Positions 38,428-52,011 are shown, numbered from the stretch's first letter. The stretch is 64,000 nt of DNA from an uncultured archaeon (GCA_964458565.1 CAYWJO010000013.1:1-64000); one strand, 5' to 3'. Notes: generated by a model not told the origin, from the sequence alone. Numbers and translations are program-made.

Positions 38428-38892
38428 CTAACTTCCTAGCTCAGCAGCAAAACGTTGTCCAAATTCATGCGCCTTTCCAGGTTCATCAGCATTGAGCGGT
38501 CCCTTGTCCGTATCAACCAAGGCTGACAATCCTTCGCTAAACAGTCTCGCTCCGGAAGCCTTCTTCCTCAGGATCTTCTCAATGCCCTGAGTGCCCTTGT
38601 GTTCATGTCTCTTTGCTAGGTATGTGTCAAATGCTGCTACAAGTTTTCCATCAAGTCCTGCCTTACATGCTCGATTTGTGGCATCTCTGATACCTCGTGA
38701 AGCTCTGAACGCATGGACTGGGCCTCCGAAGAGAACTCCATCGTATTGGGTGTAGTCCACGTCTTTAGCATCTTTCTGATTCAAGACGGCGCACTCGCTC
38801 TCACCCGAGTCCTCAATGCCGGATGCAATCTCTTTTGCTAACTGTTCTGTATTTCCGTAGGTTGTATCGAATATGATTAAGACCTTCTTCAT
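38428..38892 (-). CDS. Flavodoxin-like protein
   Basis: DTTYGNTEQLA FMN loop, FGGP, AAFDT. Confidence 0.9.
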   Translation of the reverse strand: MKKVLIIFDTTYGNTEQLAKEIASGIEDSGESECAVLNQKDAKDVDYTQYDGVLFGGPVHAFRASRGIRDATNRACKAGLDGKLVAAFDTYLAKRHEHKGTQGIEKILRKKASGARLFSEGLSALVDTDKGPLNADEPGKAHEFGQRFAAELGS

Positions 38893-38943
38893 TTCTGGAA
38901 CCCTTTTTTATTCTCTATGCTATTGCTCGAACCATTCCTTTAT

Positions 38944-39005
38944 AACGTTTGGCAAACAATGAACACCGAACGATTGATGTTTGACATATACCAAACGTTT
39001 AAATA
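38944..39005. promoter_or_regulatory. Inverted repeat next to a TATA-like box in the divergent flavodoxin / membrane-operon gap
   Basis: AACGTTTGG (38944-52) with CCAAACGTT (38991-99); nested CAAACA/TGTTTG; TTTAAATA at 38998-39005. Confidence 0.45.
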
Positions 39006-39057
39006 CAAATTACACGCTAACATACTTAGACACAACACAAAGTTTCGGTGAACAATA

Positions 39058-39963
39058 ATGTCTACAAGCTTCAACACAATTCTTGACGACCTGAAGTCGA
39101 GCCTTAAGCTGGCTTGGGGTAACATGCTAAGTTACTTTCTCGCCAATCTAGGAATGCTTATCCTGATTGGACTTCTCTTCGCGATTGTCGCAATCCCTGT
39201 AGTTGTCTTTGTCTTTATAGCTGCAGGTAGTAACTGGACTGCTTTTGCTAATATGATGCCAGTGTATGCTGAGGCTAATCCTTGGGTTCTAGGAGGAATT
39301 GCTCTTATGATTCTAGTACCGATCATTGCCCTCTTCTTAGTAGTCGTTGGCTCAATCTATGGTATGAGTAAGGAACTCGTAGCCACTGGTGAGACCAAGG
39401 CTGAACTTGCATTCTCATATTTCAAGAACAAGTTCTTCTCATTTGCTGGAGCAGGTGTACTACTTACAGTGATAATCATCCTCCCCATGATTGCCCTCTG
39501 GGGTTCTGTCAGTATCCTTAATGGTTATGTGATAACTAATGAACTCTCTACTCTCCTCTCCGTTATTACCTTCGTTTGGGCCTTCTTCACTGTGGGTTTC
39601 TGTGCAAACGTCTTTCCAGCCATCACCTATGGATCTGGTGTCATCGATGCCTTCAAGGAATCTTTTGATTTAGCCATTCAGCGATTCGATAGGGTCTTTG
39701 GCCTACTCAGTGCATTTATTGTGCTTGGAGTGGTCACATTTGGACCATTGATTCTCTGGGGTCTTGGTGCCGCCTCTATGCCACCACTAACACCCGTCAT
39801 CGATCCTCTCTTTGGAGCCGTCATGCTATGGACTTTGGTATCCGCGTTCTTGTGGGTATTCCTTCTCCTCCCCATGACAATCATTGCATGGGTCAAGTCC
39901 TACGCTGAGATGACTCAGAAGGAGATCGCCTCTCCTCCTGTCATCGAAGTACCAATTGTTTAA
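39058..39963 (+). CDS. Polytopic membrane protein
   Basis: About 6 TM helices. Paralog of the next gene (DDLK...GM.[KR]E[LI]V...F[DE]RVF). Confidence 0.85.
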   Translation: MSTSFNTILDDLKSSLKLAWGNMLSYFLANLGMLILIGLLFAIVAIPVVVFVFIAAGSNWTAFANMMPVYAEANPWVLGGIALMILVPIIALFLVVVGSIYGMSKELVATGETKAELAFSYFKNKFFSFAGAGVLLTVIIILPMIALWGSVSILNGYVITNELSTLLSVITFVWAFFTVGFCANVFPAITYGSGVIDAFKESFDLAIQRFDRVFGLLSAFIVLGVVTFGPLILWGLGAASMPPLTPVIDPLFGAVMLWTLVSAFLWVFLLLPMTIIAWVKSYAEMTQKEIASPPVIEVPIV

Positions 39964-40047
39964 TTGGGACGGGTGTATCGTGAGAGTGTCTTCAAAGCCT
40001 GGCGATGAAGGCATTCTCACACCTATATTTCCTTACGGAGGTACAAG

Positions 40048-40980
40048 ATGATGCAGAAAAGAACAAGTTTCAAAGTTGTTTGGGACGACCTAAAGATCAG
40101 TATCCGTTTTGCTATTAGCAATATAGGGTCCTTCCTGCTAGCAATGATTGGAGTACTAATAGTCACAGGTCTACTCTTTATCCTTGTTTTTGGAATACTT
40201 ATGATATTCCTTGTCATATTTGCTGGTGGACTCCCTGGTCTTATTCAATTCTTCACAGATATTAGCACCTCATTTGAGGTTCTCGATTTTGGTGCATTGG
40301 GACTTGGGCTGCTTGTCCTAGTACCTCTAATTAGCCCCCTTTTCGTGGCAATTGGAGCCCTCTTCGGAATGGGTCGTGAAATAGTTGAGAGTGAAGGAAC
40401 TTCTGCTGAAGGAGTTTTCACATGGTATCGGCGTAAGTTCATTCCTCTTGCAGGTGGTGGAATAATTCTCTTTTTAATAACCGCTCTACCTCCTGTATTA
40501 GGTTTCACGATTACATACGTAATATTCGGGCTTAGTGTTCCCCCGCTGGTAAATTCAATTCTTGCTGGATTGACATTTGTGTGGATAATCATCGCTACTG
40601 GAAGTCTATCGATGTTGTTTCCCGCCATTATCGATGGGCACAGTGCGGTTGACGCTACAATGTTGTCCATCCGATTGAGTTGGAAGTACTTTGATCGGGT
40701 CTTCTCAGTCTGGCTAGGCATACTCTCAATGATATTGTTAGTGTTCATACCCATAGTTGCTTTTCCATTTGCAACATTCAATGATCCTTCAGGTCTAGCA
40801 TCATCTGGTATGTGGGTTGCAGTATATGCCGTGCCAGCAGTTTTCATCGTTGCGTTAGTGTTTATTCCAGCCGCAGCGATAGCGCTCAGCAGAGTGTATC
40901 TTATCTTGACAGCTACAGAGAATCATACTCAAACAGATAAAGATGACACTCCGGGCCTGAGCTTCGTTGGAGGCTTCTGA
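40048..40980 (+). CDS. Polytopic membrane protein (paralog)
   Basis: Same motif pattern and topology as 39058..39963. Confidence 0.85.
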   Translation: MMQKRTSFKVVWDDLKISIRFAISNIGSFLLAMIGVLIVTGLLFILVFGILMIFLVIFAGGLPGLIQFFTDISTSFEVLDFGALGLGLLVLVPLISPLFVAIGALFGMGREIVESEGTSAEGVFTWYRRKFIPLAGGGIILFLITALPPVLGFTITYVIFGLSVPPLVNSILAGLTFVWIIIATGSLSMLFPAIIDGHSAVDATMLSIRLSWKYFDRVFSVWLGILSMILLVFIPIVAFPFATFNDPSGLASSGMWVAVYAVPAVFIVALVFIPAAAIALSRVYLILTATENHTQTDKDDTPGLSFVGGF

Positions 40981-41626
40981 TTTGGCCAAAGTGTATGATA
41001 AAATCGAACCAATGAAAGACCTAGAAATAATATCTGATCCTAGGACTATTAAGGTCCTTTTTGAGCCTACTCGTTCCGAGATAGTGTTCAGATACCTTGT
41101 GAATGGCTCGATGACTGTAAAACAGCTATCAGATGCCCTTGGAAAGAATCCTGGAACCATACTTCACCACATTGACAAGTTGAAAGATGTCGGTCTTGTG
41201 GTTCAGGATTATACTGAACAAACAATAACTGGTATTGTCCAACGATACTATCGTGCAACTGCTCGAGAGTATCGACTTGGTATTGGCGGGATGATGCAGA
41301 CTGATAGTGGTGTCGCTGAGTTTGCAGAAAAACGTCTCAAATCAATGCTTTCTAGTCTCACATATTATGGTATTGAGATTCCAGAGGGAGATCTGGCGGA
41401 AGCAACTCAACTATTGAGACAATTGATTGAACGTGAGAACGAAGTGAGTTCTAAACTTCCCATCTCCGATGAGAAGATCTTTGCTAAGCTTCAACGTCCA
41501 GTCAGAAATGACGCATCGCGAATCATGAGACGGTTCATCCTCGATCAAGATTCGCAATATCGCGGACTACGAGATAAGTGGAATGTCTTTCTCAAGTCCC
41601 ATCAAAAAGGTGTGAGTAAACAATGA
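40967..41626 (+). CDS. ArsR-like winged-helix transcription regulator
   Basis: PTRSEI...MTVKQLSDALGKNPGTILHHIDKLKDVGLV, RYYRATA. Confidence 0.88.
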   Translation: MEASDLAKVYDKIEPMKDLEIISDPRTIKVLFEPTRSEIVFRYLVNGSMTVKQLSDALGKNPGTILHHIDKLKDVGLVVQDYTEQTITGIVQRYYRATAREYRLGIGGMMQTDSGVAEFAEKRLKSMLSSLTYYGIEIPEGDLAEATQLLRQLIERENEVSSKLPISDEKIFAKLQRPVRNDASRIMRRFILDQDSQYRGLRDKWNVFLKSHQKGVSKQ

Positions 41627-42375
41627 GTAATTACGAAAGAAATACGACAATGATTTTTTGCATACTGGGTGTTCTCGTAGTTGGTTCGATTGCTGTCGGT
41701 GCAATTACGTTCTACGGGTCATCATGGCTTGGACATGATAACACGCCAGTATACTTCCATGAGGATAGTACCATCGGTAGCGTTAGCGGTCTTGTAACCA
41801 TCAATGCTGATATTAATACAGGCTCTTTGAACATCCTATTTGTTGACAATGATACACTCTTGTATGATGTAGATGTTCAGATGTCGAATAGATCCTATTT
41901 GCAATATGGTGACCCAACAATTGCATTCAGTAGTAATACACTGACCCTAAGTCATGAGGTTGCAGCATTCAATATCACTCTGGGCAATGGAATCAATTAC
42001 ACTATCAACGCTCAGACAAGTACTGGAAGCATAGCTTGTGTGCTCTCTCATGATGCCTTGGTTGGAGATGTGGCTTTGACCACAGGAACTGGTTCAATCG
42101 CATTCACAATGACAAACGATGTGACTCTGATTGGCAATGTTGATTTTGATTTAACAACTAACACTGGTTCAGTAACAGCTGTAATTATCCTCCCAGATGA
42201 TGTGGGGGCTGATTTCAGTGCAGAACTTGGTGTCGGTTCAATTGTTGTCAATGCTCCAACATGGGATAAGGTGACCAGTACACATTATCAATCAGATGAT
42301 TACGGTGATGCGCCTCAGAATCTTGACATAGTTGTCGAGACTAGCGTGGGTAGTGTGACCGCCACTCTTTCATAG
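41623..42375 (+). CDS. Membrane-anchored beta-repeat protein (DUF4097/adhesin-like)
   Basis: N-terminal TM and repeated TxxGS[IV] motifs. Confidence 0.75.
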   Translation: MSNYERNTTMIFCILGVLVVGSIAVGAITFYGSSWLGHDNTPVYFHEDSTIGSVSGLVTINADINTGSLNILFVDNDTLLYDVDVQMSNRSYLQYGDPTIAFSSNTLTLSHEVAAFNITLGNGINYTINAQTSTGSIACVLSHDALVGDVALTTGTGSIAFTMTNDVTLIGNVDFDLTTNTGSVTAVIILPDDVGADFSAELGVGSIVVNAPTWDKVTSTHYQSDDYGDAPQNLDIVVETSVGSVTATLS

Positions 42376-42413
42376 GATGCAATGCATGCTCATCATGGTT
42401 GATTTAGACAATC

Positions 42414-42445
42414 GAGAGGGATATCCCCTCTCCTTCTTCCTTTTT
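42414..42445 (+). terminator. Hairpin plus pyrimidine/T-tract terminator
   Basis: GAGAGGG-atatc-CCCTCTC then CTTCTTCCTTTTT. Confidence 0.65.
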
Positions 42446-42465
42446 ACTAAATTTGGCTTGCTTTT

Positions 42466-42801
42466 CTATCTTTCATTTTTCATAGCACCAAACGCCAACC
42501 GTTTAGCTGCTTCTCTCATTTCAGATAATTTCTCGCCATATTGAATGACATCACTATAGAGATCCATTTGCTCATGAATACTCTTCTCAACATAGGATGA
42601 AACTGCTTCGGAGCGGCTTCTAAAAACATCAAGTTCAACGAGGGTGTCGATTATTTTAACTATATCTGCACTAAGTCGTGTCATCACATGGACTTCTCGC
42701 TTTTTGATCTCAAACTCCTCTGATTGAAGTTCACCAAGAATTCTATCTTTTAGTGTGATCTGTACCTGGTCGCCCTCTGATTCACTTTTTTTCGGTGGCA
42801 T
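42466..42801 (-). CDS. Ribbon-helix-helix (CopG/Arc-like) regulator
   Basis: HVMTRLSADIVKIIDTLVELDVFRSRSEAVSSYV. Confidence 0.75.
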   Translation of the reverse strand: MPPKKSESEGDQVQITLKDRILGELQSEEFEIKKREVHVMTRLSADIVKIIDTLVELDVFRSRSEAVSSYVEKSIHEQMDLYSDVIQYGEKLSEMREAAKRLAFGAMKNER

Positions 42802-42893
42802 TGTACCAACTCCATTTTGGTCTTACACATACATAGTATACATTACGCTTAATAATCTTTATCATTAGGTAGATACCAATAACGAAACATTAT

Positions 42894-42931
42894 TAAGTTG
42901 TAAGATGTAATATAATTAACATAAGATGTAA
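42894..42931 (+). promoter_or_regulatory. Phased direct repeats upstream of Lrp gene 1
   Basis: TAAGATGTAA at 42901 and 42922 (21 nt apart); TAAGTTGTAA at 42894. Confidence 0.5.
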
Positions 42932-42970
42932 GGAATTCGAGTTACAAACTGGACTCAAGGAGAACTGAAG

Positions 42971-43921
42971 ATGGATAAGCTTGACAAAACCCTGCTCCTG
43001 AAGCTTCTCAGCGATTGTAGAGCATCCTACAGAGAACTCGCAAGAGAGTTAGGAGTTACCTGTCCCACAATTAAGAGAAGAGTGGATAAACTCATCAAGT
43101 CAGGTATTATAGAGAGCTTCACCATCGATATCTCTCAAGAAACTCTTGGTGTAAGTTGGGTGTATGCTGAGATTGAAACCGATCTATCTGAAGATCGAAA
43201 CGCATTAATCCATGCTATTTGTGCGCATAAATTCACAAATGAGATATTCGCTGTTGGATCCAAGAAATACATCGTATTTGGTGAAGTACCGCTTCTCGAA
43301 GGTATGTATGACTATGGTAAATTCTTGCGAAGTCTAGATGGAGTATGCAATGTGGAAATCACACCTGTTCGGCAATTACCAACAAGCCAGCTCTCAACTA
43401 ATAGCAAATACAGCTCAAGAGGTGGGAAGGTATCTTTCACCGAACAGCACTTACGTATCTTGAGACATCTGATGAACAATGCCCGAATTTCCATTTTGGA
43501 CCTCTCTGAAAAGGTCGGATTCAAACCAAAACGAGTAAGACGGGTTCTAAAACAACTTGAAGAGAGTGAGGGAGTTCATTTCACAATACGATTCAATCCA
43601 TCTGTGGAGGATTGTATCAGTTTCATCCTAAAGATCAGCTTCAATGAGAATATGATTGCTCCAGGTGATATCACCTATTGGATGGAAGAGGAATTTCCTC
43701 AAGAGTATTGGATGTCTTTTCTCCTCTCAAGTGGACCTGAGATGGTTAACTACATGACTGCTGATAGTCTCTCAGGTGTTGAGAAGATAATCCGAAGAAT
43801 GAAGGAAATACGATTCATAAGTGATGTTGAAACGATGTTAATCTATCATCTTGAGAAGCCGTCCGAAGACGGATCTCTGACCACATCCGAGATTACACTC
43901 GAGCCACTCTCTGCAGTATGA
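42971..43921 (+). CDS. Lrp/AsnC-family regulator with tandem HTH-RAM units
   Basis: MDKLDK...DCRASYRELARELGVTCPTIKRRVDKL, and a second HTH NARISILDLSEKVG. Confidence 0.9.
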   Translation: MDKLDKTLLLKLLSDCRASYRELARELGVTCPTIKRRVDKLIKSGIIESFTIDISQETLGVSWVYAEIETDLSEDRNALIHAICAHKFTNEIFAVGSKKYIVFGEVPLLEGMYDYGKFLRSLDGVCNVEITPVRQLPTSQLSTNSKYSSRGGKVSFTEQHLRILRHLMNNARISILDLSEKVGFKPKRVRRVLKQLEESEGVHFTIRFNPSVEDCISFILKISFNENMIAPGDITYWMEEEFPQEYWMSFLLSSGPEMVNYMTADSLSGVEKIIRRMKEIRFISDVETMLIYHLEKPSEDGSLTTSEITLEPLSAV

Positions 43922-44070
43922 TTTTTTCTAGCTAAAAGAATTACGTATACAGCGAATCCCTTGATTCTAAGATAATTCCATACATTTCGATTAATGACAA
44001 TATTTCTGCAAGGGGCCGTTTTGTAACGCGGCCGCTTCATGTTTTTCCATTTGTTCATGTGCATTGGCCG

Positions 44071-44108
44071 ATTTGGAAGACTCCGTCTTAACGTGAGTTT
44101 ATACTATT
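44071..44108 (+). promoter_or_regulatory. Promoter A: 15-bp semi-palindrome plus TATA box
   Basis: GAAGA-ctccg-TCTTA then TTTATACT (44098-44105). 28/38 nt identical to 45697-45734. Confidence 0.7.
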
Positions 44109-44183
44109 CTTGTAGTATGTATTGTTCAAGTCATTCTCCTGAATCATTGCGAGAATGTACCGATAAAAAACAGTGGTGAAGAA

Positions 44184-44486
44184 ATGAATAAGAAAAACTT
44201 GCGAAGAATTGCAGCGGGACTCATCCTCTTTGCTTTCAGTATTGGTATGCTTACCAGTCTGGCTGGCACCTTCATGACAAGTGGAGTTGCAGAAGCTGGG
44301 GATGATACAGCTGATGATTGGCCAAATCAGGATCAGGTAGTTGATTACCGCATTGATGAGCCCGCACATCCTGACCTTGATGAGTATCAAGTCGTAGATT
44401 ATCGAATTGATACACCATCAGATGAATCAGGTTTAGAAGGCGAGGCTATTCAGGTAGTCGAATACAGAATCGATACTCCCTGGTGA
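44184..44486 (+). CDS. Secreted multi-core precursor peptide (3 x QVV[D/E]YRID[E/T]P)
   Basis: GGTGA RBS, signal peptide ending AEA, acidic spacers, three cores with synonymous codon differences, own promoter and terminator. Confidence 0.85.
   Translation: MNKKNLRRIAAGLILFAFSIGMLTSLAGTFMTSGVAEAGDDTADDWPNQDQVVDYRIDEPAHPDLDEYQVVDYRIDTPSDESGLEGEAIQVVEYRIDTPW
44334..44480 (+). repeat. Three 30-nt core-coding repeats
   Basis: 44334-44363 QVVDYRIDEP, 44388-44417 QVVDYRIDTP, 44451-44480 QVVEYRIDTP. Confidence 0.95.
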
Positions 44487-44509
44487 TTCTCCCTGAAACT
44501 CATCTATAC

Positions 44510-44550
44510 GCCTAGCGTTGTTTTGGCAGCGCTAGGTGATTTTTCCTTTT
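44510..44550 (+). terminator. Hairpin plus T-tract terminator after the peptide gene
   Basis: CCTAGCGTTG/CAGCGCTAGG stem followed by GATTTTTCCTTTT. Confidence 0.7.
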
Positions 44551-44589
44551 ATTTTCTTATCCGCTGTGAAAAAGAATGAGATGATGCAT

Positions 44590-45597
44590 ATGGATTTGCT
44601 AGATAAAAAGATCATACGAAGACTGTTAGGAAATTCAAGAGAATCCTTTCACAGTATTGCGAGAGCGTTTGATGTCACCTGTCCAACAATAACCTCACGT
44701 GTTAATCGGTTGAGACAGATGGGTGTGATCCAGCGCTTCGTAACGGAATTATCTCATGAAACAATGGGTGTTGAGTGGATTCTGACTGAGATAAAGACCA
44801 ATGGTGGGATCAGGAAATCCGATCTGTTGCAGGAGTTCCAATCGAATGCTTGTATCGGGGATGTTTACATGTTAGGCAGAAGTCGTTATCTTGTACTTGC
44901 TGAAGTCTATCCTGAAGAAAAGAGTGGATATGTATCATGCCTCAAGAAGATAGATGATATCGAATATATTGAGGTAAGTGATATTCATCCAATATCTACT
45001 CAGATTAGTAATGGAAACTGTAAATTCACAACAAGAGGGCAAAAGATAGATTTATCCCCCATCGAGGTGGATCTTTTAAGATTCCTGGTAAGGAACTCAC
45101 GCACTCCAATAAAAACGATAACTGATTGCACAGGGTACAGTACAAAGCTTGTACGCAGAGTTATGAGGAAATTCATTCAGTGCAATGGCATACATCTCAC
45201 GTTGAAACTAAATCTCTCACAATGTGGTCAGATTAATTTCATACTACGCACCCGTCTAAGGGATATGACCGTGCAAGCTGATGAAATTGCAGATTGGGTA
45301 TCTTGTAGGTACCCTGAGGAACTCTGGTTCACACTCTTTGCTCCTCGTTCAGACAGTCTTTTACACTATATGACCGTAAGGCAGCCACAGTCTATCGAGC
45401 GAGTGATTAGAGAGGCCATCAAGCACCCTCGCATCGAAGATGTTGAAGCTACCATAATCTATAGTATGTTCAAATCAGAAGGACGAACGCAACAGTTCCT
45501 CAAACATTGTATTGGCAACTTCTCAGAGGATGAATTAGAATTACCGTTATCTTCTCTCCACGAACCGAGTCTGTTAGAACAAGAAATACATACCTGA
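44590..45597 (+). CDS. Lrp/AsnC-family regulator with tandem HTH-RAM units (paralog 2)
   Basis: MDLLDKK...NSRESFHSIARAFDVTCPTITSRVNRL. Shares VTCPTI, S[QH]ET[LM]GVxW, RGxK and YMT with paralog 1. Confidence 0.9.
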   Translation: MDLLDKKIIRRLLGNSRESFHSIARAFDVTCPTITSRVNRLRQMGVIQRFVTELSHETMGVEWILTEIKTNGGIRKSDLLQEFQSNACIGDVYMLGRSRYLVLAEVYPEEKSGYVSCLKKIDDIEYIEVSDIHPISTQISNGNCKFTTRGQKIDLSPIEVDLLRFLVRNSRTPIKTITDCTGYSTKLVRRVMRKFIQCNGIHLTLKLNLSQCGQINFILRTRLRDMTVQADEIADWVSCRYPEELWFTLFAPRSDSLLHYMTVRQPQSIERVIREAIKHPRIEDVEATIIYSMFKSEGRTQQFLKHCIGNFSEDELELPLSSLHEPSLLEQEIHT

Positions 45598-45608
45598 ATC
45601 AAACACAC

Positions 45609-45641
45609 GAGCTGAAGGATCTGTCTCCAATCCTTCAGCTC
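45609..45641 (+). terminator. 12-bp perfect hairpin after Lrp gene 2
   Basis: GAGCTGAAGGAT-N9-ATCCTTCAGCTC, with only a weak pyrimidine tail. Confidence 0.6.
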
Positions 45642-45696
45642 TCCTTCATTATCTAGTTTGATACAATTTTAGGACTATCGATTATCAAAAAGGGAA

Positions 45697-45734
45697 ATTT
45701 GTAAGAGACTCTCGTAACGCGTCTTTATACTAAT
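45697..45734 (+). promoter_or_regulatory. Promoter B: near-copy of promoter A
   Basis: TAAGA-gactc-TCGTA then TTTATACT (45724-45731), with the same spacing as promoter A. Confidence 0.65.
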
Positions 45735-45754
45735 AATTTCTCTATAACTCCTAC

Positions 45755-45880
45755 AAGTGTCACTCAAACCAAATTTGGATGTAATGGATTTCCTGAAAGA
45801 CGGTCTTCCTTATCACCTCTTCATCTCCTCACGAGTGCACTTCGGGTGGGGGGCTGGTCACTCCCCGCTCGTATTTTTTC
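45755..45880 (+). ncRNA. Candidate ~125-nt regulatory small RNA
   Basis: Downstream of promoter B. C/U-rich anti-SD tract (45806-45830), GC-rich three-way junction (45831-45872), T6 tract (45874-79), and no credible ORF. Confidence 0.5.
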
Positions 45881-45960
45881 ATATTCTCTCTTATAGAATC
45901 TGTTTCAGAAACTTATGCATTCTGTATTATTGTGAATCCCTTCGACTAACAGTTCTTGTT

Positions 45961-48900
45961 TCATCTTTTTTTCTTATAGATAATCACGACAACCAAAATG
46001 CCTATGGAACATCCACCTATCAACAGCAACGGTCCCCAAAGTTCCCAATCAATACAAGGCCACACACAAGGTTCTACCTCCTCTTCACCCTTAACGACAA
46101 TAACTTCAGCTATGCCAATGAGATCCCCATTGAGATATCCATAAATGGTGAACTGTCGCTCATCATCGATTTCTGCATCATCAGTTGGTTCGAAAGTTAT
46201 CGTGATTTCCTGATATTCTCCAGGTGCCAATGAATGCAGAGCCAAACCATCTATCTCACATCTCCAAAGTGGCAATGTGCTATCAACCTGTCTTGCTACT
46301 AAGAACACAGTACCCGTAGGACCACTTGTTTCATTCGATGGATTTCCAACAATCATTGTTACATTGACTGGAGAGGTGGCAGTTGCAATCTTTATGTTTT
46401 CTTGAGCCTTATTATTTGAGAGGTGCAAATCAGCAGGATCACAGGAGGTGATGGTTGCTCTTATGCACCTGTCTCCGTATATCAATGGGGTCCACGTTAT
46501 GGATGCGTATTCCTGACTTCCTGCCGGTACCGTAATACTCACGATATCAGTAGGACTGGGTTCAATCTCCTCCCACAATCCTCCTGGCTGACCTACACCA
46601 TAGTCACCTATTGAAAAGGTCACCTCTGTGTTTATCGCATCAACTGTTGCAAGGTTATGTATCGTCGCCCTTATAGTATATTTTTCTCTCATCTCCAAAC
46701 CATATCTATCTATGACCGCTCCTGTATCATAGTCACGAATCTCGATATCTGGATTATCAGGAGATGGATTCACATCATGTCCCGATCCTGCTGGATTGGC
46801 AACCCACGTGGATTCCACCCACCAACTATAGATGAATGGATCTGGAAGAACTCCAGGTGGTAGTACTCGATATTGAGTCACTGCTGCCTTTGTTACACCC
46901 TGCTTAGCGATGATGTTGATTGTACCTTCCAAGAGACCTGAAGGTATTATGTAATCTATCACTGTGTCAGCGGTAGTCACTGTAGTACTGAACGGAGCTA
47001 ATCCATCCACAGTGATATCAATTGTTCCTGCATCAAAGTGTTTCAATGTGATTTTTGTTGGAGTGCCTTCCGGTCCTTGAACTGGATCGATTGTTATCTC
47101 TCCTCCATCGCTAACAGCAATCTCGTAATTGAACTCGGGTTGTATATAGTTGTGTTTTGTGACTGTAAGATGTATGTTTTCACCAGATGTGGGAGCAAGC
47201 TCAAAGTATGCATTACCATTCCCATCTGTATATCTGACTTCGAGTATGTCTGGGTCTCTGAAGAGACACACCTTTGCATTATTTACAGGGGTAATTCCAT
47301 CTGTAACGGAAACCACAAATGACTGAGTATAAGTGGATCCAATCGTATCAGGATAGGTAATTGTCAACGGGGTGGGAAGTGATGTCCAGATTTCCATCTC
47401 GGGGTCGCCAAAGAGATTGAAGAGTTCAAGTGTTTCATCTAAAGCCGTCGGATAGTCACTAAATTTGAGAAGTATACTTTCATATTCAGTGATCCCCTGT
47501 CCTGCAGTAAGCAGCTTACCATAAGCAATGATTTGACCAAGGTCGTAAAGGCCTCCTGAAGCATATCTTTCATCAAAGTCATCCCAGATAGCATCAACGA
47601 AGCCCTTCAATAGGATATCATTCCATCCGCTATAACTCATTCGAGATGATCCAATTGTAGCAACGGCTCCCTTTGGTCCTAGATCAGGATCATAAAGATT
47701 CACTAGTTCTTCACAGAGTGAGTCTACATCTCTACTCAAAACAATATCATCATCATCATCAGTTTCACTATCAAACCAACCGGTGTTACAATCCATACTG
47801 AATATGACTGGCCAATTATTATCATAATTTTCCAGACCCCCGATATGATCCTCGATAATGAACTGAGGTAAAGACCATCCGTCTCTATCTGTTATGAAAT
47901 TACCCTCTTCATGATTATAGAAATTACTTGATACTCCATGGTCCCGGTGAAAGATCAGGAATTTACCTGAATTAAAACAATCAACAATATCTTTTTCTTT
48001 CCCTGTATCACTTACAGTCTCTGGCCATTTGTAATTTAATCCATAATCCCATGAATATCCTGTATACCAAGCCGCATCGATTAAATTATATCCATTGATT
48101 TCTGTTTCCTCGAAATACTTTTCGGGAGCATGAGACCTCCAAACACTTATTGGATTTGTGCAGTAGATTCGTTCTGTGGAATAGTCATTTTGATCAAGAA
48201 ATTGCGCAATTTGTTCTGAAGTCAAAATAAATGGACGGTCTTCCTCCCCATCAGAACCGTCTTCAGCTACATCATCAATACCATCGTCATTAGAATCAAC
48301 AAGGGAATATTCATCTTGGAAGCAAGAAACTGCACCAACGTTTGTATAGAACGAAGGCACATCAACCGGATTCTGCTCATAGTCTATTATCTTCTTGATG
48401 ACCTGAGATAATGTGTCTAAATCATCTACAGGAAGTCTACCGATGAATATATCACTAAAAGAATCAAGTCCATCAACTGTTGTGTAAATTACATCTGAAG
48501 CAATATACCCAAAGGCCTCACCTACGGGGTGATGCTCTTCTCTTCCACTAAAAGTTTCATAATTTGTTGGTATGAGATTTGTATCTCCAACTAGTAGAAT
48601 ATAGGTGGGAGCAGTTGCCCACGTTGTATATGCATTACTTATCTGCGTTTTAATACCTGCACTAGTAATAGGGGGCGATAGAGTCCAAATCTTTGTTCTA
48701 AGCCCCTTCATTTGTTTCCAAGTGGCAAGTGTATCTACATCATATTCATACGAGCCTGTAATATCATCAAGATTTGAATGAGTGATGATGAGATAATCTA
48801 CATTTTCAGGTCCCTGGGACGGTATGATTGGAGCTACTGGCATCATTGATTGCATGGGGCGATTTAATGGGTCATAATTTAGAATCATCCCTGAGAGCAT

Positions 48901-49686
48901 TTCTTCAAAGGGCTGAGAGTACAGGTTATCATCTATCGGATCTATTTGTGAAAGGACGGAGTATTCAATCTTGATTTTGATGTTCGAATATACTCTCATT
49001 ATGTTAAGTTGAGGATTGATTTGAATTGGAAAAAAAATGAGTTGAACCAACCTATGGCCTCTAATTTTCATAGGTGCGTTATCTACCGCACCTATGATTT
49101 TTGCTGGTTGGAAAGGGAAGTAAGTATTATTTGAATAAGTGATATAATCAATAAAGTGAGGGCTTGCAGTGATGTTTGGATGATCTACTTGTGGTTCTTG
49201 AGCTGGCGAGATATTGAATCCTGTATGAAGTTTGTAATTAGCTGATTCAATATGAAGACTGACGTTGACATCCCTTGGGATTTCTATAAACCGAGAAACG
49301 ATGGGAACTGCAGGTTTCCCGACATCCTCCAATAGACTTCCTCCTGGCAGGCGGAACAAATCGTATATCATTCCCTCTAGAGGTATCTTCAGCAAATGCG
49401 CTCCGTAAAATGTTGATTCGACCATAATTCCTGTTGTATCACTTGAGAGAGGGATTATCTCTGGTTTCGTATCTGGTATGGACCCATTTATGAACTCAAA
49501 CCAAGTACTACTGGACCAGTCTGATTCTTCAAATTGTTCGTAGTAATCCTTCTCAATCTTTTCGCCCTCTATCATTTCTATAGATAGATGGGACAGTGAT
49601 ATTGGTGGACCAATTATAATCAGGATGACAAGCGCACATGAAAATCTCAGCTTAAGATTCCGGTTCAAAAATCTGCTATCCTTCAT
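45961..49686 (-). CDS. Membrane-anchored gingipain-like cysteine peptidase (C25, clan CD)
   Basis: Signal/TM, C25 propeptide (GKPAVP), WKQMKG, YILLVGD, IGRLP, catalytic DHG and MDCNTG, LFGDP, Ig/CARDB-like domains, C-terminal TM-KKKR. Confidence 0.92.
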   Translation of the reverse strand: MKDSRFLNRNLKLRFSCALVILIIIGPPISLSHLSIEMIEGEKIEKDYYEQFEESDWSSSTWFEFINGSIPDTKPEIIPLSSDTTGIMVESTFYGAHLLKIPLEGMIYDLFRLPGGSLLEDVGKPAVPIVSRFIEIPRDVNVSLHIESANYKLHTGFNISPAQEPQVDHPNITASPHFIDYITYSNNTYFPFQPAKIIGAVDNAPMKIRGHRLVQLIFFPIQINPQLNIMRVYSNIKIKIEYSVLSQIDPIDDNLYSQPFEEMLSGMILNYDPLNRPMQSMMPVAPIIPSQGPENVDYLIITHSNLDDITGSYEYDVDTLATWKQMKGLRTKIWTLSPPITSAGIKTQISNAYTTWATAPTYILLVGDTNLIPTNYETFSGREEHHPVGEAFGYIASDVIYTTVDGLDSFSDIFIGRLPVDDLDTLSQVIKKIIDYEQNPVDVPSFYTNVGAVSCFQDEYSLVDSNDDGIDDVAEDGSDGEEDRPFILTSEQIAQFLDQNDYSTERIYCTNPISVWRSHAPEKYFEETEINGYNLIDAAWYTGYSWDYGLNYKWPETVSDTGKEKDIVDCFNSGKFLIFHRDHGVSSNFYNHEEGNFITDRDGWSLPQFIIEDHIGGLENYDNNWPVIFSMDCNTGWFDSETDDDDDIVLSRDVDSLCEELVNLYDPDLGPKGAVATIGSSRMSYSGWNDILLKGFVDAIWDDFDERYASGGLYDLGQIIAYGKLLTAGQGITEYESILLKFSDYPTALDETLELFNLFGDPEMEIWTSLPTPLTITYPDTIGSTYTQSFVVSVTDGITPVNNAKVCLFRDPDILEVRYTDGNGNAYFELAPTSGENIHLTVTKHNYIQPEFNYEIAVSDGGEITIDPVQGPEGTPTKITLKHFDAGTIDITVDGLAPFSTTVTTADTVIDYIIPSGLLEGTINIIAKQGVTKAAVTQYRVLPPGVLPDPFIYSWWVESTWVANPAGSGHDVNPSPDNPDIEIRDYDTGAVIDRYGLEMREKYTIRATIHNLATVDAINTEVTFSIGDYGVGQPGGLWEEIEPSPTDIVSITVPAGSQEYASITWTPLIYGDRCIRATITSCDPADLHLSNNKAQENIKIATATSPVNVTMIVGNPSNETSGPTGTVFLVARQVDSTLPLWRCEIDGLALHSLAPGEYQEITITFEPTDDAEIDDERQFTIYGYLNGDLIGIAEVIVVKGEEEVEPCVWPCIDWELWGPLLLIGGCSIGILVVVIIYKKKR

Positions 49687-49846
49687 GCTACTTTCCTCCC
49701 TAACACACGATGGCGCTTCGCACGACTATTTGTGAACTCTGTAATAAGTAGTATGCAATCATTCGAACTAAAGAAATTCAATGAGGGATTAACCTTATAA
49801 TAAAGTAAAATACTATATAATGAAAAATGACTTGAGGAGTTTCACT

Positions 49847-50503
49847 GTGGTACAAGATGCAATTACCCCTTTGGGATATCACTATATCCGTTGTTTTTGG
49901 CGATTTGTTCACGACAAAGCATTTCCCGGCCCTACCAATTTGAGCGAATTCATCAAAAGATTACGGTGCATTGCACGTTTGACACGACATGATCTTGTCG
50001 AAAAGCTATACGGTCTAGATCGAGAAGGTAATCCACTGAATGAATTCTTTGAAAAATTAGTAGAGAACTATAAGACATTGCTTGAAACCATATTCGATAA
50101 ATATCCCATTCTAAAGAAAAGCGTAAATGGGAAACGGACTCCATTCATTCGATGTCTATGGCGATATATCCACATTCTTGCTTTTGGTGATCCGGAGATA
50201 GACCCGTTAAAACAGCTCGCTAAATTCAAATGTTATAGAAAAGTTCCGAAAATTCTAAGAGATATACCTAATTATCTCAGTTCTAAATCGTTTTATACAG
50301 TGGTTGACTGTTACATAAAAATCATCTTTGCTGTATTCCACGAGAATCCTGAACTAGGTGATCCGGGTGATATTGATTGGGGTGGAGACGACGAGTATGA
50401 TGGATTTGGACCTTGTATAATACATCAACCTCCCAACCCACCTGATTGTGATTACATTGGGAGAACGATACAGGGTTATTGCCCGACTCATTATCCACTA
50501 TAG
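49847..50503 (+). CDS. Hypothetical protein with an internal duplication and a Cys/His-rich tail
   Basis: Two IRCxWRxxHxxAF repeats. GAGGAG RBS precedes GTG 49847; ATG 49820 is the alternative start. Confidence 0.8.
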   Translation: MVQDAITPLGYHYIRCFWRFVHDKAFPGPTNLSEFIKRLRCIARLTRHDLVEKLYGLDREGNPLNEFFEKLVENYKTLLETIFDKYPILKKSVNGKRTPFIRCLWRYIHILAFGDPEIDPLKQLAKFKCYRKVPKILRDIPNYLSSKSFYTVVDCYIKIIFAVFHENPELGDPGDIDWGGDDEYDGFGPCIIHQPPNPPDCDYIGRTIQGYCPTHYPL

Positions 50504-50529: not shown

Positions 50530-52011
50530 TTATACTCCTTCCAATCTTTTTATTATTCTCTCTAAGTAGTTTAGATTGTTTTCTTGAATTATCACACGAA
50601 GCTGTTTCAACACACCTTTGCCTTCATTATATTTCTCCTGAAACAGATACCATTGAGTTTTGTAAAACAAAGCTTGTCCCAAGATTCCAGGCAAGTCATT
50701 CGATTGTGCTCTCTCTTCCAACAATGTAAGCCATGGACCAAGCCCTTTGGAGGTGTCTGCGAATTGGCTTGACCCTGCAAGAAGAACTTCACTCTTCGCT
50801 AAATGATGCAAACAGATGTACTCGCTCATTAAAGTCCCCCTCCGATTGTAGATGTCCAATGCCTCTTCAAGACTTGCTTGTGCCTGAAGAAAGTTATTCT
50901 TCTCAAGTTCTATAATCCCATCAATAAGGTATAATGCAGCAAGATGTGACTCCAATCCTGACTTCAATATATTTTCCCGGACTTCATCTACCAACTCAGT
51001 CGCACCTGAAATATCCTGCATCAAACAAAGTGCCCAGGCTTGGTTAAGAATTGCTCTTGGTTTGTGTACCGGCTGAAATTCAACCTCTGCCATCTTTGCC
51101 CACTCAAGACCCGCCTCGGCATTTCCAATTGAATTGAAGAGTGTAGAGAGAGTTATGGCATATGGTCCTATTGGTTTACCCAAGCTCTGACGCAGTGTAA
51201 TATTTTCCAAGTTGTGTTCAATAGCTTGATCGTATTCTCCGCGAATTGCTTCAATTTTACTCAATTGAAAGATGGTATAGCTTAAACCATCTTTATCCCC
51301 CATAGATTTCAACATATCCAGTGATTGCAGGAGTAATTCTAGAGATGCTTTCAAATCAGATGATTGTATGTGTACTGCTTTGGTACGTAAAATTCGAGCT
51401 AATCTATTCTCATCGTTGTATTCCTCAGCAATTGATGCAGCACTTTCAATGTTTTGAATGAGTTCATCTGTATCGCCATCCCTTGATGCTCTTATGGCTA
51501 GCAAATCATGTAGTCTTGCCTCGTAAAAACGAAATTGAGAATTTGGTTTGAGTAATCCCATGATTCTATCTAATGTGGTGCTATCAAACAAACACTTAGG
51601 ATATACAAATGATTCCGCTTCGAATTTGATCAGGAGCATCTCTAGCTCTAACCACTTTGGAGGGTTACTCTTAAGCACTTCATCAACTGCTTCTCTTGTT
51701 TTCTCAATATCCGCTTCTCTACCTTGATACGCACTTGCAAAAAAGAGATGCGGCCGTATTATAGTCAGGTCCCCGTATTTCTGAGCAATTCTTTCTAAGC
51801 AATTGAAATCGGAAACAATCGAGGCATGATATGTAGCAAAATATGCAGTTAGCTCTGAGACCTCTTCATTACAGGCTTTGTGATTCAAGATTTGCACAAA
51901 ATCATAATAATTGTACGCCGCTTCCATGCAATTCTGAATATTCTCTTTAGTAACCGAGTCAATAAATGGAAAATACATTGTAATGGTACCGATTGGTTGG
52001 AACTCCTGCAC
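50530..52011 (-). CDS. TPR-repeat protein
   Basis: Helical repeats such as GEYDQAIEH, GNAEAGLEW, NNFLQAQASLEEAL. Confidence 0.85.
   Translation of the reverse strand: MQEFQPIGTITMYFPFIDSVTKENIQNCMEAAYNYYDFVQILNHKACNEEVSELTAYFATYHASIVSDFNCLERIAQKYGDLTIIRPHLFFASAYQGREADIEKTREAVDEVLKSNPPKWLELEMLLIKFEAESFVYPKCLFDSTTLDRIMGLLKPNSQFRFYEARLHDLLAIRASRDGDTDELIQNIESAASIAEEYNDENRLARILRTKAVHIQSSDLKASLELLLQSLDMLKSMGDKDGLSYTIFQLSKIEAIRGEYDQAIEHNLENITLRQSLGKPIGPYAITLSTLFNSIGNAEAGLEWAKMAEVEFQPVHKPRAILNQAWALCLMQDISGATELVDEVRENILKSGLESHLAALYLIDGIIELEKNNFLQAQASLEEALDIYNRRGTLMSEYICLHHLAKSEVLLAGSSQFADTSKGLGPWLTLLEERAQSNDLPGILGQALFYKTQWYLFQEKYNEGKGVLKQLRVIIQENNLNYLERIIKRLEGV

Follow-up and report, generated by a model that had tools for sequence, protein, structure and literature searches.

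The 64,000-nucleotide stretch of DNA analysed here (the window; positions 1-64000 of contig CAYWJO010000013.1 from the uncultured archaeon GCA_964458565.1) contained a gene encoding a 100-amino-acid peptide precursor with three near-identical decapeptide cores, located between the genes of two double regulators of the Lrp/AsnC type, regA upstream and regB directly downstream. In its genomic features the locus resembles a pair of peptide and regulator; these features include a private promoter, a strict co-occurrence of the peptide with regB, and a co-duplication of the two that was accompanied by divergence in the cores and in the effector domain of the regulator. The product is tentatively interpreted as an exported signal or sensor pro-peptide that is paired with these dedicated regulators, with a neighbouring peptidase of the C25 (gingipain) family as the likely processing protease. 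The original prediction, made from the sequence of the window, had read the gene as a multi-copy signal or as a precursor like that of a ribosomally synthesized and post-translationally modified peptide (RiPP); this interpretation was supported in part, and it had overlooked regB, the tightest partner of the peptide. In the following, G000 denotes the genome of the window and C13 its contig, whereas L and P numbers denote loci and proteins of relatives (L014 is from genome G382, L013 from G330, L016 from G327, L017 and L018 from G326, and L019 from G325). The peptide gene and its cores are located as follows.

44184-44486, plus strand: peptide precursor gene, 100 amino acids (reading of the open reading frame, AlphaFold, homologues, and contigs from an RNA library)
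44334-44363, plus strand: core 1, QVVDYRIDEP, residues 51-60
44388-44417, plus strand: core 2, QVVDYRIDTP, residues 69-78
44451-44483, plus strand: core 3 with C-terminal aromatic residue, QVVEYRIDTPW, residues 90-100

The open reading frame (ORF) and its cores were found as claimed: residues 51, 69, and 90 are the first of their cores, the third core runs to P99 with only W100 before the stop codon, and the core codons match exactly those quoted in the prediction. The protein consists of a basic segment (residues 1-8), an uncharged helix (residues 9-36), and an acidic, disordered tail (residues 37-100). The tail contains 20 acidic (D+E) and three basic (K+R) residues, the latter being the single Arg of each core, and these are the sole K or R residues after the hydrophobic segment. 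A C-terminal P-[WFY] is kept in most family members. When the pattern V[VIL][DE][YFW]R[IVL][DE] was searched in six frames across the whole 3.73-Mb genome, it returned the three cores and one unrelated single site, with no other triplicate. The motif triplicate is thus confined to the peptide gene genome-wide, and therefore the repeat reflects neither chance nor a compositional effect. The peptide had no Pfam or NCBIfam match, and a search for look-alikes in the ESM Atlas (best score 0.76) gave no lead.

The cores were the most conserved part of the protein. Across orthologues, they showed an amino acid identity of 75% and a ratio of nonsynonymous to synonymous differences (pN/pS) of 0.22, compared with 46% and 0.42 for the helix, 19% and 0.62 for the spacers, and 16% and 0.81 for the linker that precedes the first core. 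Between the three cores within the gene, synonymous sites were saturated (pS 0.54-1.14) and nonsynonymous differences were few (pN 0.04-0.19). These results support the proposed selection on the cores at the peptide level, which is purifying. The original prediction had also named two outcomes that would contradict it, conserved spacers of a folded repeat domain and a lack of transcription; instead, the spacers varied, no fold was predicted for the tail, and contigs from an RNA library covered the gene.

The generalised core motif is [VIL][VL]x[YFHW][RK][ITV][DN]xP. Exactly three aromatic-basic motif sites, 15-21 residues apart, were present in 14 of the 15 members scanned, and in these 15 members the basic residue was R or K at all 44 recognised sites and was always preceded by an aromatic residue. 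The remaining member, in L010, contained two motif sites, the third being replaced by a different C-terminus; together with P0017 and P0023 it forms a sub-family that kept two cores and carries another C-terminus. In genus g8, the repeat extends over a contiguous unit of approximately 16 residues (…VYADPDVLD[FH]RTNxP), and all species of the genus have a core 3 that differs from the other two (…RII[ST]P[FYD]). Because core 3 is position-specific across species, the three cores are, judging from the alignments, old position-specific orthologues and not freely exchanging copies.

The N-terminal segment looks more like a membrane anchor (N-in/C-out) than a typical signal peptide. Its uncharged run measured 24-28 residues in the window peptide and 24-33 residues across all members. 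The predicted signal region of 38 residues does end in AEA; however, a cleaved signal peptide is unproven and an anchor fits this region at least equally well, and an AxA-type (small-x-small) cleavage site was not conserved among the peptide homologues. According to the positive-inside rule, the tail is predicted to lie outside the cell. AlphaFold, run on an alignment of 14 sequences, predicted only a helix (residues 3-34), with a predicted local distance difference test score (pLDDT) below 50 for the rest and a disordered tail, and such a tail would fit the expectation for a precursor or for a set of linear motifs.

Sequence searches recovered approximately 30 relatives of 78-127 amino acids, and all named relatives were annotated as hypothetical proteins from Candidatus Thorarchaeota (Asgard archaea). 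A profile search of 400 genomes of the phylum, comprising 86 of the host family and 314 others, yielded matches confined to this one family (G000, G382, and G327-G330) and no match in the 314 genomes outside it; the peptide in G326 was recognised by reading the locus directly. In all, 8 of the 86 genomes of the family carried the gene. Neither the peptide nor a regB orthologue was found in G383 (95% complete) or G384 (92% complete), and the patchy presence within genera indicates that the cassette is accessory. No longer or fused forms of the peptide were found in the search, which is weak evidence, and a pattern scan of metagenome contigs gave 507 matches, none of which was a relative. The literature contained no description that could be found of this peptide family, which is an undescribed, lineage-restricted, conserved gene.

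The closest partner of the peptide gene is regB, and the two regulator genes that flank the peptide gene are located as follows.

42971-43921, plus strand: regA, double HTH_AsnC/Lrp-type regulator of 316 amino acids, upstream of the peptide gene
44536-45597, plus strand: regB, double Lrp/AsnC regulator, directly downstream of the peptide gene (Pfam HTH_AsnC); the true start is likely the ATG at 44590, giving 335 amino acids

Both proteins follow the Lrp/AsnC layout, in which an AsnC-type winged helix-turn-helix (HTH) is followed by a RAM-type effector domain, and their Pfam matches of the HTH_AsnC type had E-values of 1e-10 to 1e-19. In regA, HTH_24 and HTH_AsnC matched residues 1-48, and a second HTH was located near residues 156-205. 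Residues 19-142 of regB aligned to residues 1-126 of Lrp-family structures of 150 residues, the effector domain included, as well as to LysM, Lrp/Grp, and LrpA models; since PF01037 was not matched, the effector domain of regB is divergent. The two regulators were 30% identical to each other, and regA orthologues with 55-70% identity were found in L002, L006, L013, L014, and L016. The peptide gene lay approximately 50-110 nucleotides upstream of regB in all loci seen. The genomes with regB orthologues of at least 40% identity (G000, G382, and G326-G330) coincided exactly with those that bear the peptide, and paralogues at 25-33% identity were widespread in the family. Four other double-Lrp paralogues of the window genome had no small exported ORF alongside, and therefore only regulators of the regA/regB lineage are paired with such a peptide. 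Other double-Lrp paralogues in G000 (C29:4143-7037 and C58:10929-13357) lie beside a 642-amino-acid OppA-like protein and an ABC ATPase-like gene, the OppA-type (family-5) and ABC ATPase assignments being made by eye from the ORF list; this arrangement hints that the double-Lrp regulator family may govern peptide uptake or catabolism. A complex prediction of regB with tail residues 39-100 (score 0.00, controls not run) speaks neither for nor against binding.

Peptide and regulator have also duplicated as a pair. L022 (7063-10219) contains the tandem P0027-regB-P0024-regB, followed by a C25 gene. The two peptide copies were 78% identical, with changes within cores 1 and 3, and the two regB copies were 86% identical, with 21 of their 47 substitutions in residues 61-135 (Fisher p = 2.8e-4). 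These residues correspond to the first Lrp effector domain and were not unusually variable among orthologues. Furthermore, L001 (1799-2246) carries P0012, a small anchor protein of 114 amino acids that is located downstream of regB behind the same promoter and hairpin of the 5' untranslated region (UTR); three repeats of the WELDEDIQ type make up part of its tail, the last residues of which are YVTDTPI. Just before the end of that contig, the promoter occurs a third time (L001:2432-2461). At L018:5735-8771 (contig C8 of G326), two small ORFs with the N-terminal helix of the family and differing acidic, Pro-rich tails, one of which ends in WDGYRTDAPH, precede a gene resembling regB (43% identity), accompanied by a convergent regA-like gene.

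The peptide gene is preceded by an elaborate upstream region and is followed by its own terminator-like hairpin, and a second copy of its promoter occurs behind regB. These elements are located as follows.

44014-44033, plus strand: distal element TTTGTAA[CA]G in a short GC hairpin, kept in all nine aligned upstream regions; candidate regA terminator or upstream operator
44074-44103, plus strand: promoter with a GGAA-N4-6-TTCC semi-palindrome and TAAC[GA]CG, abutting TTTATA; predicted operator with B recognition element (BRE) and TATA box
44132-44157, plus strand: hairpin of the 5' UTR with a stem of 7 bp in the window, located where the mRNA is predicted to begin
44173-44179, plus strand: Shine-Dalgarno-like GTGGTGA, 4 nucleotides before the ATG, its position kept in the upstream alignments
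44509-44545, plus strand: terminator-like hairpin of 13 pairs, followed by a T-run
45700-45729, plus strand: second copy of the promoter/operator, found by motif search
45750-45878, plus strand: short unit of approximately 130 nucleotides resembling a small RNA, behind the second promoter and ending in a terminator-like hairpin (45843-45871)

The promoter motif occurred twice in the window, compared with 0.01 expected occurrences, and these two copies are the only ones in the whole 3.7-Mb genome. The same promoter precedes the peptide genes in L001, L002, L006, L007, L010, and L017 and is conserved across genera. RNAalifold on 12 loci supported the hairpin of the 5' UTR with eight pairs, five of which had compensatory changes. 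With its own promoter and terminator-like hairpin, the peptide gene reads as a putative monocistronic unit. Contigs from one salt-marsh metatranscriptome run were 100% identical to the window over 44150-44492, from the 5' UTR to just beyond the stop codon, and two short contig pieces of the same run fell within regB; no contig covered the promoter, the second unit, or the stretches between the genes, but such gaps prove nothing. The second unit (45700-45878 with its promoter) holds ATCACCTC/CATCTCCTCAC, which resemble anti-Shine-Dalgarno sequences, and ends in a GC hairpin with a T-run. Its transcribed part was nearly identical at L003:1628-1738, where the neighbouring regB proteins were only 68% identical, and a looser version was located on the minus strand of L016 (4240-4426). 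An Rfam scan of 43800-46100 gave nothing above noise and no family for this unit.

On the tentatively favoured interpretation as an exported pro-peptide, the peptide gene would be transcribed alone from its operator-bearing archaeal promoter, and the product would insert into the membrane in an N-in/C-out orientation via the long hydrophobic helix, where it would either stay anchored or be freed by signal peptidase. Outside the cell, the disordered and very acidic tail would display the three core motifs, and an extracellular protease, for which the adjacent surface C25 peptidase is the candidate, may cut it close to, or directly at, the basic residue that is invariant in the cores. The resulting fragments, or else the condition of the tail itself, would then feed back on regB and regA, directly after uptake or indirectly, and the regulators would act on the GGAA-N-TTCC/TAACGCG operator that precedes both the peptide gene and the second small unit. 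Precedents exist in Bacillota, in which pro-peptide genes lie beside receptor genes, mature peptides are C-terminal, and Phr precursors can be multi-repeat (PMC7425212, PMC10075063, PMC5199041). It is doubtful, although conceivable, that the locus represents the first case of cell-cell or self-signalling by a ribosomal peptide in archaea, with processing by a gingipain-like enzyme, reading by tandem Lrp/AsnC proteins, and diversification of pairs in the manner of Rap-Phr.

Several observations weigh against the pro-peptide interpretation. The core count was three in nearly all of the approximately 30 homologues, whereas interchangeable signal copies are expected to vary in number. There were no conserved processing sites beside the cores, as K or R residues outside the cores numbered zero in the window protein and 0-3 in the homologues. 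In the alignments, the cores are conserved to the left and to the right of the basic residue, a pattern closer to that of a site that is recognised or cleaved than to that of a peptide that is set free. Release of the tail from the membrane is unproven because of the long hydrophobic segment and the lack of a conserved AxA-type site, no peptide importer occurred in the cassette among the loci read, and no C25 gene was located within 10 kb in the L020/L013 lineage. The RNA evidence is only a hint that the peptide gene is expressed, because the contigs are unstranded, come from a single run, and may reflect DNA carry-over. Lrp/AsnC effector domains bind amino acids and similar small molecules, and we know of no Lrp/AsnC regulator that senses a peptide. 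The fixed core number, the position-specific cores, the two-sided conservation, and the lack of flanking sites and of an importer together keep a protease-centred role alive.

In such a role, which is regarded as unlikely but deserves weight, the peptide would be anchored at the cell surface and serve the C25 peptidase of the same cell as a pseudo-substrate, a decoy, an inhibitor, or a tether. Its three Arg/Lys-centred sites, held close to this membrane-tethered enzyme, would buffer, position, or report the activity of the enzyme, and the Lrp regulators would control a proteolysis module in response to amino acids. The peptidase gene is located as follows.

45961-49686, minus strand: C25 (gingipain-family) peptidase of 1241 amino acids, membrane-tethered, convergent with regB

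This protein matched Peptidase_C25 (PF01364, 1.2e-44) and Propeptide_C25 (PF08126, 4.8e-10) in Pfam and has a C-terminal anchor, and its catalytic Cys (SMDCNTG) was assigned by eye. A C25 gene adjoined regB in four of the seven informative loci of different genera, namely in the window, L017, L021, and L022; in L017 the C25 start abuts the regB stop, and in L022 the C25 gene is cut by the contig end. The link to C25, which the original prediction had raised as a substrate-mimicking inhibitor, thus exceeds a coincidence in a single genome. A second C25 gene occurs in the same genome with a regA paralogue and a gene with tetratricopeptide repeat (TPR)-like sequence (on contig C18), and this recurrence also argues for the protease-centred role, as do the residues flanking the invariant R/K, which are conserved to either side as in a P4-P4' site, the fixed number of position-specific cores, a long and fairly conserved helix that resembles a stable anchor, and the double-Lrp paralogues whose neighbours in the ORF lists read like an OppA-type binding protein and an ABC ATPase. 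On the other hand, regB was always near the peptide gene and C25 was not, as in L020/L013, and a protease-centred role does not explain why peptide and regB duplicated together and then diverged in the cores and in the regB effector domain. A further point against this role is that the window enzyme aligns to gingipain R only around the catalytic His-Gly motif.

In detail, the cluster on C18 (G000, 38838-46228) comprises the regA paralogue (38% identity), a secreted protein of 291 amino acids, the second C25 (37% identical to that of the window), and a 258-amino-acid ORF with TPR-like sequence, and it contained no small peptide gene. A C25-like protein of 464 amino acids beside regB in L012 was not counted among the C25 neighbours; it is divergent and cytoplasmic, had a borderline Pfam score and no signal peptide, and is not orthologous to the window C25.

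Roles centred on the helix or on structure are less likely than the protease-centred role. The peptide could be a small integral membrane protein whose conserved transmembrane helix modulates a transporter, a sensor, or an intramembrane protease, with the tail as a binding or regulatory appendage. The helix is moderately conserved (46% identity, with near-invariant G21, G28, and F30), is the only part that AlphaFold predicted with confidence, and is common to paralogues with quite different tails, such as P0012 and the small ORFs of L018. However, conservation is far higher in the cores than in the helix and no gene for a membrane partner is conserved in the cassette, which makes this role improbable. 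A structural role was judged equally improbable, in which three amphipathic, strand-like motifs would form a beta-sheet, an oligomer, or an amyloid-like component of the envelope or matrix; the original prediction had likewise named a peptide that forms beta-strands or amyloid. The cores do alternate hydrophobic (V-Y-I) and charged (D-R-D) faces with a Pro after each, and the motifs are threefold throughout with a roughly regular spacing of 15-21 residues; nevertheless, AlphaFold on the 14-sequence alignment gave no strand or fold in the tail, and self-assembly is disfavoured in a tail that is so strongly negative, with 20 D/E and 3 K/R residues. Spacer length also varies, one sub-family swaps core 3 for an unrelated C-terminus, and dedicated regulators that co-duplicate with the peptide would be unusual for a structural protein.

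A RiPP precursor with cross-linked or otherwise modified aromatic-x-x motifs, for example of the cyclophane type on [YFHW]-R-I, is very improbable. In its favour, the motifs are repeated, Y, F, H, and W are exactly the residues that occupy their aromatic position, a gene for a B12-binding radical S-adenosylmethionine (radical-SAM) protein lies approximately 3 kb away in one relative (L012), and the TPR protein near the cassette had a match far below threshold to a RiPP-associated TPR model, but this role is rendered unlikely because none of the 25 radical-SAM matches (PF04055) in the genome is on contig C13 and no modifying enzyme is conserved across at least eight loci, the L012 gene being the sole candidate neighbour, and the N-terminus is a membrane helix and not a typical leader. 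The RiPP option of the original prediction was accordingly not supported.

Beyond the C25 gene, the window contains a TPR protein that recurs near the cassette and is located as follows.

50530-52011, minus strand: TPR superhelix protein of 493 amino acids, cytoplasmic, with weak TPR matches in Pfam

The protein contains no HTH and lies 2-6 kb from the cassette in four loci, with homologues in L012, L015, and L021 (40% identity in L021). Its AlphaFold model is all-alpha (pLDDT 91). A fold search against the PDB returned generic peptide-binding TPRs, in which LGN and MalT ranked ahead of Rap (rank 38), and these model-based matches do not discriminate function. Between the TPR and C25 genes, a Cys/His/Trp-rich protein of 227 amino acids without a Pfam match (49820-50503) is encoded divergently from the C25 gene.

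The peptide system resembles several known systems without belonging to any of them in full. As in RRNPP systems (Rap-Phr, NprR-NprX, PlcR-PapR, AimR-AimP, and AloR-AloP), a short ORF with a hydrophobic export segment adjoins the gene of a cytoplasmic regulator, a conserved motif is located at the extreme C-terminus, the two genes of a pair duplicate jointly with divergence in both products, and paralogous pairs carry other tails; multi-repeat pro-peptides also occur among Phr (PMC5199041; for definitions of RRNPP see PMC7425212 and PMC10075063). RRNPP receptors carry a C-terminal TPR or TPR-like peptide-binding domain (PMC7425212). In contrast, regA and regB are double Lrp/AsnC proteins with HTH_AsnC/HTH_24-type matches only and no TPR repeats, and the separate TPR protein with its generic fold matches is only a loose neighbour of the cassette. 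The system further differs in its Asgard host, a longer precursor, a helix resembling a membrane anchor, cores fixed at three, and the lack of an Opp-type importer in the cassette. Because its adjacent regulators lack a TPR domain and its host is an archaeon, the system is not a member of RRNPP.

Precursors of the alpha-factor and neuropeptide type, to which the original prediction had likened the gene, share with it an N-terminal export segment, several copies of one short conserved peptide (here three near-identical decapeptides), unconserved acidic spacers, and selection at the peptide level. The analogy nevertheless fits poorly, as there are no flanking dibasic (KR/RR) or other conserved sites, the single basic residue lies within the core, the copy number is three in nearly all homologues, and the cores are position-specific. 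With archaeal Lrp/AsnC (feast/famine) regulators, the locus shares the AsnC-type HTHs of regA and regB and a semi-palindrome that abuts the TATA box of the peptide gene; archaeal Lrp-type activators bind semi-palindromic sites just upstream of BRE/TATA. Known members of this family respond to amino acids and not to peptides, whereas regA and regB are tandem doubles (two HTH-plus-effector modules, approximately 320-350 amino acids) that are tied to a small exported peptide gene. A likeness to gingipains is seen in the C25 with propeptide and catalytic His-Gly motif beside the cassette in four loci and in the Arg or Lys of every core, since the characterised gingipains R and K have these residues at P1. 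On the other hand, the peptide does not resemble C25 pro-domains (no Pfam match), and its linkage to C25 is frequent but not universal.

To our knowledge, no archaeal signalling system based on a ribosomal peptide has been described, and literature searches found no archaeal peptide-signalling system. Archaeal quorum-sensing signals were reviewed as carboxylated acyl-homoserine lactones and diketopiperazines, with no ribosomal peptide signal named (PMC4609331). If the signalling interpretation is true, peptide signalling would extend to Asgard archaea and Lrp effector domains would gain a new type of ligand. If instead the protease-centred role is true, the locus would show by what means Thorarchaeota that degrade peptides keep a gingipain-like enzyme on their own surface under control or guard themselves against it. 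The pieces are short and can be synthesised, so the question is testable in vitro without cultivating the organism.

The core cassette consists of a small regulator resembling ribbon-helix-helix (RHH) proteins, regA, the peptide, and regB, and it was found, with rearrangements, in the window, L014, L006, L013, L016, L017, L020, L021, and L022. Its first gene is located as follows.

42466-42801, minus strand: RHH-like small regulator of 111 amino acids, the RHH fold being suggested by a sequence pattern

This protein had no Pfam match, and NCBIfam gave only a weak match of the AbmR type. Orthologues with 63-69% identity lie beside regA in L013, L014, and L016, and equivalents were found in L017, L019, L020, L021, and L022. 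In L019 (1979-2190; G325), the RHH gene, regA, and the conserved promoter and hairpin are followed by a 40-amino-acid ORF that ends in PPW and contains no cores, and no regB orthologue was found in G325 (93% complete); here the cassette may have decayed, or this may be its minimal form. In L017 (6961-7752), L020 (13466-14254), and L022 (4465-5262), the RHH gene is flanked by a gene for a protein of the metallo-beta-lactamase fold, as supported by Pfam, with approximately 262 amino acids and an N-terminal hydrophobic segment. ORFs that agree with it in size and position were present in L013 (3637-4425) and L016 (1758-2549), and the N-terminus in L016 closely matches that in L017. In the window, a LiaF-like_C protein (41623-42375) is encoded in place of the metallo-beta-lactamase-fold protein.

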